Shown: in pieces, positions 1-8,799 of the stretch
How the letters are laid out: each line of letters starts with the position of its first letter
Position numbering within the stretch: position 1 is the stretch's first letter
IMG/VR virus record: IMGVR_UViG_2534681774_000024
DNA: 8,799 nucleotides
Direction: 5' to 3' (one strand)
DNA from: a virus
Lineage: Duplodnaviria; Heunggongvirae; Uroviricota; Caudoviricetes
Program-made: the position numbers and the translations under genes
Notes under the pieces: generated by a model
What the model was told of the DNA's origin: nothing
The model's database searches: none
Seen by the model: only the letters and a program-made list of their open reading frames with translations

Positions 1-666
1 CGGAAAGGTATCCATCCACAAAATCATCTGGCCGGTTACAGCGGTGTGCTTCAGGCCGATGCTTACGGTGGTTACCGGGTGTTATACGAATCCGGCAGAA
101 TAACGGAAGCCGCGTGTATGGCTCATGCCCGGAGAAAAATCCACGATGTGCATGCAAGAGTGCCCACCGACATCACCACGGAAGCCCTGCAGCGTATCGG
201 TGAACTGTATGCCATAGAGGCAGAAGTCCGGGGATGTACAGCAGAACAGCGTCTGGCGGCAAGAAAAGCCAGAGCTGCGCCACTGATGCAGTCACTGTAT
301 GACTGGATACAGACTCAGATGAAAACACTGTCGCGTCACTCGGATACGGCAAAAGCGTTCGCATACCTGCTGAAACAGTGGGATGGCCTGAACGTGTACT
401 GCAGTAATGGCTGGGTGGAAATCGACAACAACATCGCAGAGAACGCCTTACGGGGAGTGGCCGTAGGCCGGAAAAACTGGCTGTTCGCGGGTTCCGACAG
501 CGGTGGCGAACATGCGGCGGTGTTGTACTCGCTGATCGGCACATGCCGTCTGAACAATGTGGAACCAGAAAAATGGCTGCGTTACGTCATTGAGCATATC
601 CAGGATTGGCCGGCAAACCGGGTACGCGATCTGTTGCCCTGGAAAGTTGATCTGACCTCTCAGTAA
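1..666 (+). CDS. IS66-family transposase, C-terminal part (5' end lies upstream of the window)
   Basis: The frame is open from nt 1; the ORF track starts at the first Met (nt 46). The translation carries the region [29 protein letters not shown] (DNN-x-AEN-type motif) that I recall as characteristic of IS66/ISEc8-type transposases. The stop lies 30 bp before an IS66-type terminal repeat. Confidence 0.85.
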
Positions 667-696
667 ATATCAATACGGTTCTGGCGAGCCGCTTAC
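1..696 (+). mobile_element. IS66-family insertion sequence, right-hand portion with terminal inverted repeat at about 677-696; the element continues upstream of the window
   Basis: The reverse complement of 677-696 is GTAAGCGGCTCGCCAGAACC, so the outward-facing terminus begins GTAAGCG, as I recall for IS66-family ends. The integrase-like minus-strand translation stops making sense exactly at nt 696/697. The 8 bp at 697-704 (GTATATTT) are a candidate target-site duplication, but the left end is not in the window. Confidence 0.75.
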
Positions 697-1552
697 GTAT
701 ATTTCCTCCATTAATCATAAAGTGAGCAGCAAAGGTATGGCGTAGAACATGTACAGCCTGTCCTTTTGGTAGGTCTGGCTTAACACTGCGAAGCACCTTG
801 CGATATTCCTCATAATTGACGTCAAACAAAAGGCCGGATTTCTTTGTTTTGATCTCACTAACAACTTCATCAGAGACAGGAATAATTCGAACTTTTCCGT
901 TTTTAGTTTTGTTAAACGTCACGCGATTATTGATGATGTGTTCCGCGCGCAGATTTTTCGCTTCTCCCCATCTCGCCCCAGTACTGAGACAAAGTAGCGT
1001 AATCCGCCGGGCATCACCGCTTACTGCATCCAGTAATTTGGCGATTTCTTCCGTGGTGAGATACGTCATTTCGGGTGATTTTCGTTTCAAAGAGGGGAGG
1101 GCGCGGAGCGGATTTTCTCCGTGAAATTCCCCGGCATTTGCCAGGAGTGTAAACATTCCTCCGAGATCCGACTCATCACGCCGAACAGTAGACTCTTTTA
1201 CTCCCAAGGATAAACGGGAGCTTCGATAAGCGGCCATGAAACGAGCATTAATCTGGCTAACCCTTGGATCATTCATTTCTTTGATGATTTTTTTCAACCT
1301 GGTTAGAACGCCGTTAGCATATGGCTTATTGCGTCCACCCAATTCCCACCATAACGGAAGCAGATCTGAGAGATGACGTTGCTCTGTTGGCTTTTCAAGC
1401 CATTCCTTATCGTGCATGTGGCTGAGAACATAACGCTCAAAGGCCACTGCATCTGCCTTTTTCTTAAAAATCCGCTGAATCCGACGTCCACTTCGGCCAC
1501 GCGGTCTAACATCCACTTTATACCGTCCACCATCGAGCGCTTTAATTGCCAT
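697..1552 (-). pseudogene. int: P2-type tyrosine integrase, truncated at the C-terminus by the IS insertion (about 285 codons retained; catalytic Tyr region not present here)
   Basis: Part of minus-strand ORF 587-1585. Probable start is ATG 1550-1552 (MAIKALDGGRYKVDV...) with GGAGGG 7 nt upstream. It contains LCLSTGARWGEA and HVLRHTFAAHFMINGGNI, matching the P2 Int family as I recall it. After ...GGNI the reading frame continues into the IS terminal repeat ([11 protein letters not shown]... is translated IS sequence). Confidence 0.8.
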
Positions 1553-1618
1553 TGGCAAGCCCTCCGGTGAAACGAGGAAAGACATTTCCAGTTTGTAAAA
1601 CGTAAGAATAATAAAGGG

Positions 1619-1921
1619 TTAGCCAATTTTCCTTTCGGATGGGGGTAAGTCCGTTGGCTCTTGCCCATAGTGTGCGAGAGCCGGAGCTATCTGCCCGGAT
1701 TCAGGCGCAATTTTCCCAGTCATAAACCACAACGCATATTTCTCAAATCTGGGGTTGTTTAGTATTTGCTCAATTACTTCAGCATTAGGGATAGTTTTAC
1801 CGCTTTCATATCTCCACAGAGCATCACGGTTTAAACCAAGCATTTTTGCTGTATCCGGGAGGCTAGTAAGTCTCTCGCTTTCACGCATGATTTTTATGCG
1901 CTCTCCAATAGTCATACGCAT
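1619..1921 (-). CDS. C-type immunity repressor, XRE-like HTH, about 100 aa
   Basis: Minus-strand ORF 1619-1936. The ORF-track start at 1934-1936 is a TTG; the first ATG is 1919-1921 (MRMTIGERIKIMRESERL...) with GGAG 9 nt upstream. There is an HTH-like segment LPDTAKMLGLNRDALWRYESGK. Size, orientation and position (between int and the rightward early operon) match the P2 C repressor; the C-terminal ...IAPESGQIAPALAH... resembles what I recall of P2 C. Confidence 0.65.
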   Translation of the reverse strand: MRMTIGERIKIMRESERLTSLPDTAKMLGLNRDALWRYESGKTIPNAEVIEQILNNPRFEKYALWFMTGKIAPESGQIAPALAHYGQEPTDLPPSERKIG

Positions 1922-2016
1922 GTTGTAATTCTCCAACGTCTGTATTAATGTTTATGCAAATGAGTTTGATTTGGGGCATCCGTCGCAAGAAATACCCCAA
2001 ACAGGGAGATTATCAC
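1922..2016. promoter_or_regulatory. Divergent repressor / early-operon switch region (Pc/Pe-type), inferred from gene arrangement
   Basis: A 95-bp AT-rich spacer between the divergently oriented repressor and Cox-position genes. It contains imperfect repeated motifs (AATGTTTATG / AATGAGTTTGAT) that could be operator half-sites. I could not identify unambiguous -35/-10 hexamers by eye. Confidence 0.4.
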
Positions 2017-3356: not shown

Positions 3357-3450
3357 CGATACAAATAAAACATCAAATTAAATAAGAAAACGTGAAAACC
3401 ATCCGTATTAACGGAGGTATTCGCACACGCAAATAACGGAGATACAAAAA

Positions 3451-3861
3451 ATGCACGCAAAAGAAGAAGGTATCATCAGAGCACTGAAAGAAATTTCAAA
3501 GACAGAAAACGAAGTAGCGAAAAAAGCCATAGCAAATAATCATATGGACGTCGCAACCCACACACTGATAGTCGCAAGAGTCACGGCAGAAGCAGCCGAA
3601 ATTATCGCAAAACAGGATGCTGAACTGGCGGTTCTCAGAACACAACCAGTCACCGGACTGGATTTGTCTAACACCGGACGCCTTATTTACACAATTGGCT
3701 CGGAGCTACAGCGATACACCATTATCGCCGGGTTACAGGATAAATACCTGATCACTCCTCACCCCATAAGGGAATCAGAAATTCTGACAAATCTCCGCCT
3801 GATAGAGCGCTCTCAAGTCGCATTCATTGATGACGCACAGTGCACCGTATTTAACGCATAG
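3451..3861 (+). CDS. Hypothetical protein (136 aa) whose 5' end lies in an AT-rich islet
   Basis: ATG 3451, preceded by a duplicated AACGGAG motif and a roughly 95-bp AT-rich non-coding stretch. No family recognised. Confidence 0.5.
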   Translation: MHAKEEGIIRALKEISKTENEVAKKAIANNHMDVATHTLIVARVTAEAAEIIAKQDAELAVLRTQPVTGLDLSNTGRLIYTIGSELQRYTIIAGLQDKYLITPHPIRESEILTNLRLIERSQVAFIDDAQCTVFNA

Positions 3862-4351: not shown

Positions 4352-4647
4352 GCACCATCAACCACCAGAAGCTACGCGAACTGGCATTTGCCCTGCAACG
4401 AATGGCAACACCTCAAAAATTACTGGCATTTCGCGCAATGCTCTCGCCGTCTGCTGCGCTGGCATTGCTGGATGAGCTGGAGCACGCCAGAACCACGGCT
4501 CCTGCCATTCGCCTGACGCTCCATCATGAAATCGCTGATTTCTGCGCGACATTGGAGGTGCCAGGCGAACCGGAAACGCCGGAAGCAATACAGCAAGAGC
4601 TGCTGCAACGTATTGACAAGGTTTTTGATTTTTTTCTGAACCAGTAA
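4348..4647 (+). CDS. Hypothetical protein (99 aa)
   Basis: ATG 4348 with GAAGGAAG 7 nt upstream, overlapping the upstream stop (ATGA). It is the last gene before the structured non-coding gap. Confidence 0.5.
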   Translation: MSTINHQKLRELAFALQRMATPQKLLAFRAMLSPSAALALLDELEHARTTAPAIRLTLHHEIADFCATLEVPGEPETPEAIQQELLQRIDKVFDFFLNQ

Positions 4648-4665
4648 GAAACCAGAGCATGCACA

Positions 4666-4793
4666 CACAAAAAAACCGCTTGCCATGCCGCAATCAGTCA
4701 GGTTACATTTCCGCTGCACCTCATAAAACGGGTGCCGGGTTTCGCAGCCTGCTGACTACAAGAGCGCACAACCGCGCCAGCGGTTTTTTTGTG
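4666..4793. repeat. Perfect 15-bp inverted repeat pair (CACAAAAAAACCGCT at 4666-4680; reverse complement at 4779-4793) bracketing 98 bp
   Basis: Read directly from the sequence. Each arm contains a run of seven A (or T) next to CCGCT/AGCGG. Confidence 0.7.
4770..4790 (+). terminator. Candidate intrinsic terminator: AACCGC-GCCA-GCGGTT hairpin running into T7
   Basis: A 6-bp stem (4770-4775 / 4780-4785) with a 4-nt loop, followed by a T-run through 4790. The stem is short, so this is tentative. It sits about 120 bp downstream of the stop of ORF 4348-4647. Confidence 0.35.
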
Positions 4794-4969
4794 CGTACTG
4801 TATTGCCACGTTTTTTTCGCGTCAGAATTATGGCGGGGCGTACGGGGCCGACTTCGGTCGGGCCGGGATCTCTTGTAGCCGGTACTGCGAACCTCGTACG
4901 TCTCGCCACCCACAGTTTCGCAGCTCTGGATGGTGAGTTTTCACAACTTACTACAAGAGGCCACATATC

Positions 4970-5200
4970 ATGGCAAACCGCAAACAGCACCGCACTATCG
5001 CGGAGCGTCGTCACATCCAGACTGAAATCAACCGCAGACTTTCCCGCGCATTCCGCGTCGCTAAAATCATGCACATCAATATGCTGCATGAGCGTAGCTG
5101 CGAACTTTCAAACCTCTATTCATCCGCTGTTTTCAGCTATCTGGCGGATGATCTGCGCGAGCTTCAACAGCTCATCCAGCAGCAAAACAAACTCCATTAA
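4970..5200 (+). CDS. Hypothetical protein (76 aa), predicted helical
   Basis: ATG 4970 with AAGAGG 9 nt upstream. The product is Arg/Gln-rich but protein-like, whereas the overlapping frame (ORF 4659-5276) is Ser/Arg-rich and low-complexity. Confidence 0.5.
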   Translation: MANRKQHRTIAERRHIQTEINRRLSRAFRVAKIMHINMLHERSCELSNLYSSAVFSYLADDLRELQQLIQQQNKLH

Positions 5201-5272
5201 TTCCTGTTCCGGACCTTTCCTGCACCTTGCGGCGGGAGGCCTTCGCACATCTGTAACAAGAGGATTGCCGCA

Positions 5273-5638
5273 ATGATTCTCGCCAACGACTTTCTTGAAT
5301 ACCTGCTCAACACAGAACGTGATCTTGCCGCTCGCGTGCGTGATCGTTATGACATGTACCTGAAATCCCTGCCTGTACCGCAGCTCGCTGACGGAAAGAT
5401 TGTTATTGATGGTCGCTACATGATTGACAGCCACGAGGGAAATTACAGGCTTTACCGCATTGAAGGTGGCACCCCGTCCGTTATTGGCATTTACCAGCGC
5501 CCATCCTCTGCAATCGTCGATGTGATTGCCGACAGCATCCGCATCACACATCGCCATGCCGACACAGAAGACACCGTGCTGGAAATTCAGCGGCTGGCTG
5601 CCGTCTGCCGCGACACCCTGAATGGCATGACGAAGTAA
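5273..5638 (+). CDS. Hypothetical protein (121 aa) immediately upstream of gene A
   Basis: ATG 5273 with AAGAGG 9 nt upstream. Its stop is 6 nt before the gene A start. Confidence 0.5.
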   Translation: MILANDFLEYLLNTERDLAARVRDRYDMYLKSLPVPQLADGKIVIDGRYMIDSHEGNYRLYRIEGGTPSVIGIYQRPSSAIVDVIADSIRITHRHADTEDTVLEIQRLAAVCRDTLNGMTK

Positions 5639-5644
5639 ATCACT

Positions 5645-8468
5645 ATGACGGCAGAGTACATCAGGGACTGGCAACAACCGCGCCACGCAGTGGGACGTGA
5701 AGGAACGGGGATCCCCGTTCCTGAATCTGCGCTTTCTTCCTGGCTGGATGCCTACCGGGCAGAGAACGAGCGCCGCCAGGAAATGGCTGATGCGGCGTTC
5801 TCCGCCACGCCGCTGGGCAACCTGATTAATAAAAGCCTGGATGCACAGGAAAAACAGGACAAAACCATCACACTGGCAGGAGACGCCAGAAAACAGGCAC
5901 GCGGCGCGGTGGATGAAGCCATGGCCTCGCTGCGCCTGCTGCCGTCCTATCTGCGCGATCCGCTTATTCGCCACCTCTCCTTCCTGCGCAAAAAACAGGA
6001 AGTCGATCGCCGGAAAGGCAAAAAGAGCTGGCAGGCTGAACGCTACGCGCGCGGAACCCTGCGCAAAATATTCGAACGTCTGGACCGCACCGACCACCGC
6101 TGGCTGACACCGGGTTATCGCTCCCTTGCCGGACGCGAACGCCTGGATGATTTGCTTTACCTGCCGCAGCTCAACAAGCACCAGATACAGACGCTGGCCA
6201 CCATGACGGCGGCGATGTTCAGCAGCACCTTCGAAAAACTCTGCGATGGCTTTGGCGCGACTGATGGCGAACTGACCATGGATGTAACGCTGAAGGCGTA
6301 TCAGATGCTGGCCCGCATGGCGTTACACCTGCACGCCATGCCTCCACATTATGACGCACTGACAACAGACAAAGACCGGAGGAACGAACCGGACACGGAG
6401 CTGCTGCCGGGCGCAATCCTTCGCCTGACCTGTGCGGAATGGTGGAAACGCAAACTGTGGCTGTTACGTTGCGAGTGGAGAGAAGAACAACTCCGCGCCG
6501 CCTGTCTGGTTTCCAGAAAAACATCACCCTATCTGAGCCAGGACGCGTTAAGCGAGTTTCGCGCACAGCGCGAGAAAACACGCGATTTCCTGAAAAGTTT
6601 CATGCTGGAAAATGAAGACGGGTTCACGATTGATCTCGAGACAGTGTATTACGCGGGAGTAAGTAACCCGGTTCACCGTAAGGCAGAAATGATGGCCACC
6701 ATGAAGGGACTGGAACTTCTGGCCGAAGCCCCGTGGCGACAGAGCGGTGTTTCTGACTGTCACCTGCCCGTCAAAATACCACGCAACAACGGAGAACGGT
6801 CATCCGAACCCCAAATGGAACGGGGCCACCATGCGCGACTCCAGCGATTACCTGGTTAACACGTTTTTTGCGGCGGTCCGCAAAAAACTGAACCGCGACG
6901 GCCTGCGCTGGTATGGCATCCGCACGGTGGAGCCTCACCATGACGGAACCGTGCACTGGCATATGATGGTCTTTGCCCATCCGGAAGAAATCGACACCAT
7001 TGTGTCCCACACCCGCGATATTGCCATTCAGGAAGATCGTCACGAGCTGGGCGATGATATTACTCCGCGCTTTAAGGCGGAGTATGTAGACGGCTCAAAA
7101 GGCACGCCAACCAGCTACATCGCCACCTACATCGGAAAGAACCTGGACAGCCGCGCCGTGGATGGCATCGACCCGAAAACGGGCAAGCCACGCGTTGACC
7201 ACGAAACAGGAAAATCAATGGCCGAGAGCGTGGAGCGCGCCATCGGCTGGGCGCGCCTTCACCGGGTCCGCCAGTTCCAGTTCTTTGGCATTCCCTCCCG
7301 TCAGGTGTGGCGTGAACTCCGCCGCCTTGCCAGCCAGATGGCACGCAACCCGGAAGGCCCGCAACGGCTGAAGGATGACGCAATGGATGCGGTTCTTGCT
7401 GCCGCTGATGCCGGGTGTTTTGCCACCTACATTGAAAAACAGGGTGGCGTACTTGTTCCGCGCAAGGACTACCTGATTCGCACCGCCTACGACCTCGCAG
7501 ATGAGCTGAACGATTACGGCGAACAGAGTGTACAGATTTACGGGATCTGGTCGCCATTCATCGGGGAATCCTCCCGTGTGTGCACGCATCCGGATAACTG
7601 GAAGCTGGTAAGACGTAAACCGGAAGCGGAGGACAGCGCCCGCGAAAATGGTTTTGACCTTCAGGGCGGCCCTGCCGCCCCTTGGACTCGTGGCAATAAC
7701 TGTCCCCGTGTACAGGAAACGGACAACAACGGGACAGAACAGTCGGAAGAACGGCCAGCACCGTGGCCGCAGCTCCCTGACGGCGTTGAAGTGAACGAAT
7801 GGATGCGCTCACTGAAACGGCACGAACGCCGGGCGCTGATGCGTTCGCTTCGTGACAAACAGGCAAAAAACAGCAGTGATGAAATGCAGAGCTGGACACA
7901 GAGCCGCAAACAGCAGTGGCCTTTGCCTGATAACCACGAATTACTCGCTAAAGAATGGCGGAAGTCTGCTGAATCTCTCGGCCTGCATATCGGTGAACAA
8001 CAGATGCAGCACCTGTTACGGGGCGGCAGTCTGTACGTTGACGGCAGCATCATTGCACCGCAGGGATTTGAAATTGTACGCAAACCGGATACCCGCCCGG
8101 ACAGTCGAATCACGCAGCTCTGGCAGCGCCTGAGCCGTAATCATGGCGTAAGCAGCACGGAGATCCGCCATAACCCGGTCGCCAGCTATCTGGCACAGCT
8201 GGGGGCATCAGACCCTGAAGCCGCCGCACGCCTGGCATCCACACTTCAGCAGGACCAGAACACCATGAAAACACCCGTTACCGTGCTTTCTGACATGCTG
8301 CGCGCCATCCGCGACGCAGAGCACGCACAGAGAATCAGTGAAATCACTGAACGCGCCAGCCGCAAAGCAGACCTGCTGCGGGGTGGCCTGACCAGCGGAA
8401 ACAAAAAACAGACAGAAACGGGACTCACGAATCCCGTAAATGAGCAAAAAACGCGCAGCGATATATGA
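5645..8468 (+). pseudogene. A: P2 gene A-type rolling-circle replication initiator (HUH endonuclease), read in two frames with a frame change near 6729-6732
   Basis: ORF 5645-6859 (frame 2) and ORF 6747-8468 (frame 0) overlap by 113 nt. The downstream part carries FLTVTCPS, the HUH motif in GTVHWHMMVF, and a paired-tyrosine motif TSYIATYIGKN, matching what I recall of the P2 A / Phage_GPA family. Frame 0 is open from 6705. Removing one C from the CCCC run at 6729-6732 gives a continuous reading ...[27 protein letters not shown]... The 6747 start in the ORF track is a GTG inside this reading. Confidence 0.75.
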
Positions 8469-8544: not shown

Positions 8545-8799
8545 ATGAAAATTTGTATCGACGACGGCTCCACCAACATCAAGCTGGCATGGACTGAGAA
8601 CGGCGAATGCCGCAACGCCATCAGCCCGAACAGCTTCAAGTCGGAATGGTCTGCGCCGTTCGGTGGCTCGCAGCCTGCGAACTACATGCTTGATGGCGTG
8701 CGCTATGGTTTTGATCCGGTCAGCGATCGCTTTGTCCAGACGACCGACACGCAATACCAGTACAGCGATGTGAATATAATCGCCATTCACCACGCGCTG
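8545..8799 (+). CDS. parM: ParM/StbA-like actin-family ATPase, N-terminal 85 codons (3' end beyond the window)
   Basis: ATG 8545 with AAGGAAAA about 8 nt upstream; open to the window edge and in frame. The translation MKICIDDGSTNIKLAW...ISPNSFKSEW...YQYSDVNIIAIHHAL closely parallels the N-terminus of plasmid R1 ParM as I recall it (MLVFIDDGSTNIKLQW...WQYSDVNVVAVHHAL). It is not in the ORF track because it has no stop within the window. Confidence 0.8.
   Translation, partial: MKICIDDGSTNIKLAWTENGECRNAISPNSFKSEWSAPFGGSQPANYMLDGVRYGFDPVSDRFVQTTDTQYQYSDVNIIAIHHAL

Follow-up and report, generated by a model that had tools for sequence, protein, structure and literature searches.

The immunity region immI of phages P1 and P7, reportedly described by Citron and Schuster in 1990, has the order a1-b1, c4, a2-b2, icd, and ant. 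In the annotated P1 genome (NC_005856), a promoter is followed by the sites a1 and b1, by an 80-nt RNA of three helices (C4), and by the sites a2 and b2. The P1 RNA carries one recognition element, b′, in the loop of its second hairpin and another, a′, in a junction; a2 lies 3 nt past C4, and b2 covers the ribosome binding site (RBS) of icd. The sequences of these a and b elements set the specificity on which P1/P7 heteroimmunity depends. In this study, we analyzed an 8,799-nt stretch of viral DNA (IMG/VR record IMGVR_UViG_2534681774_000024, in full length referred to as the window), which is the early region of a P88-like (Xuanwuvirus) prophage of the P2 family in E. coli, and we focused on its gap at positions 4648 to 4969. 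We consider it very probable that this gap is an IsrK-C4 RNA immunity module, which keeps an epsilon-type anti-repressor gene silent by base pairing. It matches the P1 arrangement almost site for site, in the same order and at the same spacing, and the module adds one more copy to a system that is already well studied; it does not represent a new kind of element.

Several other systems have been equated with one another and with immI, and Barquist et al. are said to be among those who did so. The satellite phage P4 has an immunity region in the order seqA, CI RNA (seqB), seqC, epsilon, orf151, cnr, and alpha. Its CI RNA pairs with seqA and seqC, which causes premature termination and shuts off the replication genes (PMC4825925, PMC3632133), and its E (epsilon) protein is an anti-repressor that binds the C repressor of P2, where a sos resistance mutation is located at Thr67 (PMC2995052). 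In Gifsy-1, the IsrK RNA, a structural homolog of P4 SeqA, has been determined experimentally to be ~77 nt long; transcription that reads through its terminator gives a processed species of ~80 nt downstream (STnc1160), and orf45, a 45-aa frame between isrK and anrP, is reported to be translated (Hershko-Shalev et al. 2016, PMC4825925). For N15, the part of Ravin et al. (1999) that is relayed in PMC3632133 describes the same small processed RNA in control of an anti-repressor operon. Published work thus equates IsrK/C4 with seqA/CI of P4 and with the P1, P7, and N15 systems (PMC3632133; PMC4825925).

Results and Discussion

Two RNAs of known families lie in the gap

The whole window was scanned against the Rfam covariance models, with the curated gathering scores as thresholds. 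Two full-length matches fell inside the gap, both on the plus strand, as are all elements of the module described below. The first, at 4716 to 4790, is an IsrK-like small RNA (RF01394, 66.7 bits against a gathering score of 50, model positions 1 to 77 of 77), and the second, at 4826 to 4913, is a C4/CI-type antisense RNA precursor (RF01695, 81.1 bits against 45, model positions 1 to 87 of 87). An initial annotation, made from the letters of the window alone, had described a non-coding gap of about 320 bp with strong secondary structure and had offered three origins for it, one of them a structured small RNA. The two matches bear out that option, and the structure is as strong as claimed, with the C4 segment folding at −47 kcal/mol and the RNA of 4660 to 4800 at −55.5 kcal/mol, both with z = −4.2.

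Relatives of the module were collected from 83 further loci, each with a gene for a close homolog of the 76-aa protein discussed below (in E. albertii, Salmonella, and IMG/VR prophages). Alignment A1 contains 51 non-redundant upstream regions of P88-like relatives, comprising 48 distinct sequences, and the recognition elements were typed over 86 modules. Average identity across the module is 88% in A1, and most of the variation is found within the six recognition elements.

The minimum free energy (MFE) structure of the C4-like RNA reproduces the Rfam consensus architecture, and none of 200 shuffled sequences folded as stably. It consists of a 17-bp outer stem (4831 to 4847 with 4892 to 4908), hairpin 1 (4848 to 4861) with its UUCG loop, and hairpin 2 (4862 to 4883). 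In the relatives, the outer stem is 99.9% paired with three compensatory changes, hairpin 1 is 100% paired with two, and hairpin 2 is invariant. The initial annotation had drawn a GC-rich UUCG hairpin at 4845 to 4864. Its C(UUCG)G loop (4852 to 4857) is real and sits in hairpin 1 of C4, but the 8-bp stem proposed for it contains a G-G mismatch (4847/4862); the supported stem has 5 bp (4848 to 4852 with 4857 to 4861), and the G and C residues on either side are part of the outer stem and of hairpin 2.

Several features associated with C4 processing can be seen in the sequence, namely the AAUUAU leader, the acceptor-like outer stem, and a CCACC tail, all of which are kept from P1 to the window. 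By homology with the annotated C4 of P1, the mature RNA is predicted to span about 4832 to 4910 (~79 nt) and to end in CCACC, and it would probably be released by RNase P at the 5′ end and by trimming at the 3′ end. ARAGORN found no tRNA or tmRNA here, despite the acceptor-like stem.

The IsrK-like RNA is laid out as two 5′ hairpins (4716 to 4735 and 4737 to 4750), a linker, and an intrinsic terminator (AACCGC-GCCA-GCGGUU followed by U7, 4770 to 4790). The terminator, which the initial annotation had already recognized as a hairpin with a run of seven T, was returned by a terminator scan and coincides with the terminator of the Rfam IsrK model; its stem (helix 3) is invariant in A1. The 5′ hairpins are 98% and 89% paired in the relatives, with one-sided changes only. 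We regard this RNA as the homolog of P4 SeqA and of the a1b1 leader of P1. The Rfam motif built on that leader, c4-a1b1 (RF03163), scored 20.5 bits at 4703 to 4755, below its gathering score of 46.7, and IsrK fits the region better; in P1 the pattern is reversed, and the leader in the window, unlike that of P1, has a strong terminator.

A promoter scan found a putative sigma-70 promoter at 4680 to 4709 (TTGCCA-18-TACATT), the hexamers of which are invariant or nearly so in A1. The IsrK-C4 transcript would be expected to start near 4716. The position of the promoter agrees with the start of the Rfam IsrK model and with the P1 promoter P1c4, which lies upstream of a1/b1. By analogy, a discrete RNA of ~75 nt is probably made from this promoter.

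Two further signals in the spacer between the RNAs were considered and rejected. The scan gave a second promoter-like site at 4803 to 4831, with a −10 element AATTAT that ends at 4831 and a −35 element that reads TCGCCA in about half of the relatives. It is unlikely to be a C4 promoter, since transcription would start at about 4837 to 4840, inside the outer stem of C4, and the −35 element is not conserved. AAUUAU is also the leader kept in all C4 precursors, including that of P1, where no promoter is annotated at this place. The second run of seven T (4811 to 4817), which the initial annotation had listed among the structural elements of the gap, does exist, but it is preceded by no hairpin and is shortened to T5 in most relatives, and we do not consider it a terminator.

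Four complementary sites co-vary with the C4-like RNA

The C4-like RNA presents two elements that are unpaired in its MFE structure: b′ (CUCUUGUAG, 4870 to 4878) in the loop of hairpin 2 and a′ (CUGCGAA, 4885 to 4891) in the single-stranded junction. Upstream, a perfect complement of a′ is present as a1 (UUCGCAG, 4741 to 4747), in hairpin 2 of IsrK (loop and 3′ side), and a perfect complement of b′ as b1 (CUACAAGAG, 4756 to 4764), in the single-stranded IsrK linker. Downstream, a2 (UUCGCAG, 4917 to 4923) lies a few nucleotides past the predicted 3′ end of C4 and is again perfectly complementary to a′, and b2 (CUACAAGAG, 4951 to 4959), the second perfect complement of b′, overlaps the Shine-Dalgarno sequence AAGAGG (4955 to 4960) of the gene that begins 10 nt further on, at ATG 4970. 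In most specificity types with a clear b2 match, the 3′ end of b2 is 9 to 11 nt 5′ of the ATG. These four sites, one of which covers the RBS of the next gene, had been missed by the initial annotation.

All four pairings are maintained by compensatory change across the 48 distinct sequences. The 7 pairs of a1 with a′ are 100% paired with four compensatory changes, the 9 pairs of b1 with b′ are 100% paired with seven, the 7 pairs of a′ with a2 are 100% paired with four, and the 9 pairs of b′ with b2 are 97% paired with six. The observed covariation score was reached by none of 500 shuffles, and when the partner was slid by 1 to 3 columns, pairing fell to between 27% and 52%. The recognition elements are hypervariable among the 51 P88-like copies, yet they always change together. 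Over the 86 modules we distinguished 5 a types, ~13 b types, and 18 specificity types; the type of phage P88, for example, is AACUACAG/UUUCCAC. Cognate duplexes had a mean energy of −23.7 kcal/mol, compared with −13.7 kcal/mol for non-cognate ones, and all 18 C4 types preferred their own target. An antisense regulator that sets the specificity of immunity through short recognition sequences, as seen when P1 is compared with P7, is expected to behave in this way. Prophages that are almost identical elsewhere carry different a and b elements, and we therefore propose, from these sequence comparisons, that these elements act as an address code by which each C4 would silence only modules of its own type. 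We observed directly that the two RNAs belong to known families, that C4 folds as described, that four sites are complementary to it and co-vary with it, and that b2 overlaps the Shine-Dalgarno sequence.

Two side observations concern the recognition elements. In three cases, two modules came from one genome (loci L042/L050, L033/L053, and L044/L089 of our set, all from IMG/VR), and each pair shared its a type and differed in its b type. The b type thus differs in 3 of 3 informative same-genome pairs, a sample far too small to test, and the difference fits the idea that co-resident prophages need different specificities. Separately, the Shine-Dalgarno region of the gene after next, orf121 (ACAAGAGG, ~5257 to 5264), matches the b2 of the window over 7 to 8 nt. 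We rejected it as a third C4 target, as it is unchanged in relatives with other b types and does not co-vary with b′; the resemblance appears fortuitous.

The adjacent gene, its neighbors, and a presumed repressor target

The gene under b2 (4970 to 5200, plus strand) encodes a 76-aa protein that is assigned to the epsilon-type family PF25738 in Pfam and is named "derepression protein" by the Prokaryotic Genome Annotation Pipeline (PGAP). Its membership is marginal, at 30.1 bits for residues 8 to 67 against a cut-off of 27; P4 epsilon, the type member, scores 170 bits. In a BLASTP comparison, the protein was 30% identical to P4 epsilon over 66 aa (E = 2e-9), and it is 19 aa shorter. It matched no NCBIfam model and gave no alignment with P1 Icd. 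The frame itself carries a clear coding signature among the relatives, with 22, 22, and 40 variable columns by codon position and 122 synonymous against 172 non-synonymous changes; the other two frames across the same region have ratios of 68/224 and 51/231.

Downstream follows orf121 (5273 to 5638, plus strand), a 121-aa gene without an assigned function, which has its own Shine-Dalgarno sequence. It belongs to phrog_3237, a family of unknown function, and had no match in Pfam or NCBIfam and no similarity to P4 orf151. It may be affected by polarity and is not a direct C4 target. The replication endonuclease gene A (5645 to 8468, plus strand) is the last gene that might be subject to polarity from the module, and its control by C4 is suggested by analogy with P4.

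The resident P2-type C immunity repressor (1619 to 1936, minus strand) is 52% identical to P2 C (E = 6e-34) and keeps the Leu63/Trp64/Thr67/Ile70 region of that protein. By analogy with P4 E, it is the presumed target of the epsilon-like protein.

Comparison with related modules

An IsrK RNA followed by a C4 RNA at a distance of 25 to 36 nt was also found in seven other phages, namely P88, Citrobacter phage Shae_phiSM, mEp460, a Stx1 phage, a Stx2 phage, ST64B, and phiKO2, and in all seven the pair is followed by an anti-repressor-type gene (Rha, Ant, or icd-antA). The pair is present in P1, where C4, a1, b1, a2, and b2 are annotated, and in P4, where the matches lie at the seqA/CI RNA region upstream of epsilon. 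The closest RNAs outside the P88 group are those of Gifsy-1 (isrK-orf45/STnc1160-anrP) and of lambdoid modules (mEp460, ST64B, and Stx phages), with 72 to 78% identity in C4 and 78 to 79% in IsrK. As in the window, an IsrK with its own terminator is followed 25 to 36 nt on by a C4-type RNA and then by an anti-repressor gene. These modules differ from the window in their Rha/Ant/AnrP-type cargo, in the lack of the left arm of a 15-bp inverted repeat (see below), and in the model of activation by IsrK with a translated orf45.

The C4 of P1 shares the AAUUAU leader and the CCACC tail with the window and is 69% identical to it. The cargo differs, being of the P4 epsilon type in the window, without similarity to Icd and without Ant, and the module lies within a P2-type early operon, 5′ of gene A. 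Both RNA families are found in P4 as well, again with IsrK first (isrK at 60.8 bits and C4 at 74.9 bits), and they are followed by an epsilon-family gene and then the replication gene. Here the differences are that P4 epsilon begins ~245 nt past CI and is controlled by premature termination, whereas b2 in the window masks the Shine-Dalgarno sequence directly, and that orf121 is unrelated to orf151. The host of the window module is a complete helper-type P2-like phage and P4 is a satellite, with RNA identities of 64 to 67% between them. In the N15/phiKO2 group (CA RNA, icd, antA, antB), phiKO2 has IsrK, c4-a1b1, and C4, then icd, antA, and antB; RNA identity is 68%, and both the cargo genes and the replicon type are different.

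Neither IsrK nor C4 was found in the early regions of the canonical phages P2 and 186, even at E = 1. We therefore regard the module and its epsilon-like gene, from this sequence comparison, as an addition of the P88 lineage. Our literature search returned no description of IsrK/C4 in P2-like phages, nor of regulation in P88 or Xuanwuvirus.

Proposed mechanism

Based on P1, P4, and Gifsy-1, we infer the transcripts, the processing by RNase P, the translational block, the polarity, and the protein target that make up the following scheme. Transcription from the sigma-70-type promoter at 4680 to 4709 would start near 4716, and most transcripts would end at the terminator at 4770 to 4790, giving the ~75-nt IsrK-like RNA that displays a1 and b1. 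Transcripts that read through would carry the C4 precursor, which RNase P would cut after AAUUAU (at ~4831/4832) and which would be trimmed to ~4910. The mature C4 of ~79 nt, with b′ exposed in the loop of hairpin 2 and a′ in the single-stranded junction, could then pair with a2 and b2 on any transcript that crosses the region. As b2 overlaps the Shine-Dalgarno sequence, the 76-aa anti-repressor gene would not be translated when C4 pairs, and the untranslated mRNA would probably expose orf121 and gene A to premature termination. The IsrK-like RNA carries a1 and b1, the same two sites, and would therefore be a competitor or co-target for C4, or itself a target for termination. If C4 were out-titrated, the anti-repressor would be made and the P2-type C repressor inactivated.

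Several points weigh against this scheme. The promoter, the efficiency of the terminator, the processing sites, and the regulatory outcome at this locus are all read from sequence. Similarity to the epsilon family is weak (30.1 against 27 bits, 30% identity), and binding to C is presumed. The regulated gene is unrelated to P1 Icd and is not followed by an Ant/Rha-type protein. The P1 mechanism is thus carried over on the strength of the geometry, since the gene content differs; the locus would operate as immI does, but it is not an icd-ant operon. In Gifsy-1, IsrK activates in trans and the C4 region is read as a translated orf45, and regulation may differ in sign and in logic from one member to the next. 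An IsrK-C4 model also leaves the conserved 15-bp inverted repeat without an explanation. Finally, the prophage looks defective, and the module may escape current selection in this copy.

Alternative explanations

Three readings are very improbable. We give almost no credence to the gap being protein-coding. A 205-aa open reading frame (ORF) at 4659 to 5276 spans it and is free of stops in 48 of 51 relatives; in addition, a conserved AUG at 4830, in the C4 leader (AAUUAUGG), opens a 148-aa frame (4830 to 5276) that passes through C4, its targets, and the epsilon-like gene in another frame, remains open at ~82 of the 86 loci, and stops in an ATGA that it shares with the start of orf121. Annotators of lambdoid phages have also extended Rha/Ant coding sequences (CDSs) over the region. 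However, a fully open frame of the length of the 205-aa ORF occurs in 407 of 2,000 dinucleotide shuffles (20%), the three relatives in which it is broken retain all RNA elements intact, and variable columns across the gap (22/80, 33/83, and 30/79 by codon position) have neither periodicity nor a third-position excess. The predicted product is rich in Ser, Arg, and Cys, and the variation is explained by RNA pairing. The frame from AUG 4830, which would be an orf45-like ORF, has no coding signature (68/224, against 122/172 for the epsilon frame), and orf121 has a Shine-Dalgarno sequence of its own; we rejected this frame as well, and the gap is non-coding, as the initial annotation had it. Next to nothing speaks for another of its three options, by which the segment at 4666 to 4793 would be a 128-bp miniature inverted-repeat transposable element inserted in the spacer. 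The 15-bp terminal inverted repeats are indeed perfect, but what they enclose is the IsrK gene and its promoter, and homologous IsrK genes occur without the left arm in lambdoid and N15-like phages, P1, and P4. The segment occurs about once per genome (median 1, in 1,400 of 5,426 genomes) and always in the same prophage context, and the 15-mer is found in the window only at its two arms. None of the 86 related modules is an empty site lacking the 128 bp, and the flanks (ACA and CGT) bear no target-site duplication. The remaining option, ordinary punctuation in which a terminator is followed by an internal promoter that restarts the early operon, is very improbable as the whole story. One terminator-like and two promoter-like sites are present, and the terminator at 4770 to 4790 and the promoter at 4680 to 4709 do stand as parts of the module, but punctuation leaves the full-length matches to two RNA families and the compensatory co-variation at four sites unexplained, and the start from the site at 4803 to 4831 would fall in the outer stem of C4, with AAUUAU as its conserved leader.

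Two further alternatives accept the elements and are compatible with the module proposed here, from which they differ in the mode of action. In the mode known from P4, the C4-like RNA would mainly cause premature termination by pairing with both sets of sites (a1/b1 and a2/b2) in nascent RNA, whether transcription began at the early promoter (Pe) or at the promoter of the module, acting as the true immunity factor that shuts off gene A and the epsilon-like gene, with translational masking secondary. The gene order is that of P4 (isrK-like, C4-like, epsilon, replication gene), pairing of CI with seqA and seqC has this effect there, a1/b1 co-vary as strictly as a2/b2, which suggests a function of their own for the upstream sites, and a1/b1 lie just 5′ of the intrinsic terminator. 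Set against this, b2 sits exactly on the Shine-Dalgarno sequence, 9 to 11 nt before the ATG as in P1, whereas P4 epsilon starts ~245 nt past the CI RNA, and C4 and IsrK are no nearer to P4 (67% and 64%) than to P1 (69% and 62%), the nearest being lambdoid anti-repressor modules (72 to 79%). We give this mode an appreciable probability, though one below even. Rather less probable, and on the whole unlikely, is the mode described for Gifsy-1, in which the read-through RNA would fold on itself, with a1/b1 paired to a′/b′ in cis, and be translationally inactive until IsrK opens it in trans; on this view, positive control would be exerted by IsrK, and the "C4" segment would serve chiefly to inhibit in cis. 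The MFE structure of the unprocessed RNA (4716 to 4975) does pair a1/b1 with a′/b′ in cis (−105.5 kcal/mol, z = −4.0), and in Gifsy-1 itself IsrK raises anrP translation more than 100-fold in trans (PMC4825925). Yet Gifsy-1 also yields the stable processed ~80-nt species STnc1160 (PMC4825925), and the AAUUAU leader and the acceptor-like stem with its CCACC tail are conserved from P1 to the window; both observations favor a C4 that is processed and acts in trans. The orf45-like frame shows no coding signature, as given above, and the pairing at the b2/Shine-Dalgarno site is kept by compensatory change.

CDSs have been placed over IsrK and C4 genes in public phage records, among them P88 gp13, the Rha/Ant genes of mEp460, of a Stx1 phage, and of ST64B (extended upstream by ~350 nt through both RNAs), phiKO2 gp30, and the old "cI protein" of P4. 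In our numbering of loci, such CDSs are found at L001 5033 to 5221 (minus strand), L004 1641 to 2792, L006 1773 to 2795, L007 1647 to 2804, L008 2059 to 2235, and L010 8168 to 8584. They are probably mis-annotations.

An inverted repeat outside the classical module

The perfect 15-bp inverted repeat reported in the initial annotation was confirmed by exact complementarity of its arms, CACAAAAAAACCGCT at 4666 to 4680 and AGCGGTTTTTTTGTG at 4779 to 4793; the match extends to 21 nt at 90%. The left arm, an A7 tract followed by CCGCT, lies directly 5′ of the −35 element, and the right arm extends over the 3′ half of the terminator hairpin together with the U-tract. The repeat is invariant in the 48 distinct P88-like sequences, and with no changes to compare, the covariation test is uninformative. 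Arms in relatives include one case with matching A6/T6 lengths and two with uncompensated changes. The left arm is also the left boundary of the conserved module, with homology starting here across prophages with at least five different upstream contexts. In lambdoid, N15-like, P1, and P4 modules it is absent, with 7 to 10 of 15 complementary positions, within the range of shuffles.

In the predicted fold of the RNA of 4660 to 4800, the two arms are paired with each other, and no terminator hairpin forms. The left arm is outside IsrK and inside any transcript from the early promoter. Promoter-dependent antitermination through the inverted repeat is an attractive idea, which we offer as a possible model. 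The A-tract of the left arm could presumably also act as an UP element, judging by the −46 to −38 consensus that we assume for it. The inverted repeat is real, invariant, lineage-specific, and outside the classical module.

Locus and host prophage

The gap is flanked by the stop codon TAA (4645 to 4647) of the upstream gene and by ATG 4970, the next supported start. From the left, the window holds an integrase gene (587 to 1585, minus strand), the gene of the C repressor, and, on the plus strand, a Cox-like gene with a series of small early genes that leads up to gene A. The nearest named phages are P88 and other Xuanwuvirus members (Peduoviridae), one Citrobacter phage included. A 701-bp segment (4600 to 5300), which contains the gap and the adjacent gene, is 100% identical in ~10 RefSeq E. 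coli genomes, and 1,400 of 5,426 complete E. coli genomes have a match to it, at a median of one place per genome and always in the same prophage context. RefSeq annotation is blank between the upstream gene and the 76-aa "derepression protein."

Gene A, recognized by Pfam PF05840 split over two ORFs, is frameshifted. The overlapping ORFs (5645 to 6859 and 6747 to 8468) result from one extra C near 6729, where the window has CCCC and the intact 940-aa gene of a 98.8%-identical prophage has CCC; this is either a frameshift pseudogene or a sequencing error. At the other end, an ORF at 46 to 666 is a C-terminal fragment of an IS66-family transposase that adjoins the prophage. Homology to an intact prophage beside pheA begins only at 691, and the last ~35 codons of the integrase gene are replaced. 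The frameshift in gene A and the truncation of int by an insertion sequence suggest that the prophage is defective.

Some smaller observations are recorded here. Relatives have parM and a gene for a partition protein downstream of gene A (L001 8856 to 10131, L002 8945 to 10220), and the end of the window (~8545 to 8799) seems to fall inside parM; P88-like phages may thus carry a plasmid-type segregation system, which would be unusual for integrated P2-like prophages. At position 3446, just 5′ of the start codon of a 136-aa ORF (3451 to 3861), the window has a run of A6 where a relative has A5. One locus, L013 (NZ_JBQPOM010000071.1, "Vagococcus sp. WN89Y"), is a contig labeled as a Firmicute that has an enterobacterial P88-like module, with an epsilon-like gene at 83% aa identity; it is likely to be contamination or mislabeled.

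Implications for P2-family phages

The module explains a gap that is widely spread among complete E. coli genomes and is left unannotated there, and over which several phage records place spurious CDSs. Three aspects may be undescribed: the placement of the module in a helper-type phage, an epsilon cargo with P1-type masking of the Shine-Dalgarno sequence, and the extent of the combinatorial a/b diversity. All three are variations within a known scheme, and the basic picture of C4/CI-type regulation is unchanged.

A more far-reaching interpretation, which we regard as speculative and rather improbable, is that the modules form a combinatorial RNA code for self and non-self. It would be built from exchangeable a/b cassettes (5 a types by ~13 b types, in at least 18 combinations), the three copies of which change in concert, with the inverted repeat adding promoter-dependent logic. 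If this were true, an incoming phage that shares the type of a resident prophage could have its anti-repressor and replication genes shut down by the C4 of that prophage, and the epsilon-type protein of a helper-type phage could derepress other resident P2-type prophages in trans. Transcripts from Pe would carry the left arm and mask the IsrK terminator, and those from the module's own promoter, without the left arm, would terminate.

Whatever the fate of that interpretation, the sharply bounded, co-varying a/b cassettes provide clean data from nature on the specificity of short kissing interactions, and they predict heteroimmunity classes among P88-like prophages. P2 has been considered non-inducible, and 186 relies on Tum, a protein under LexA control. 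A third route of derepression in the P2 family would be an epsilon-type anti-repressor that is gated by RNA. Some P2-family phages would then have a second, RNA-based layer of control over the decision between lysis and lysogeny, made of the same parts as the immunity region of P4, a layer that P2 and 186 themselves do without.

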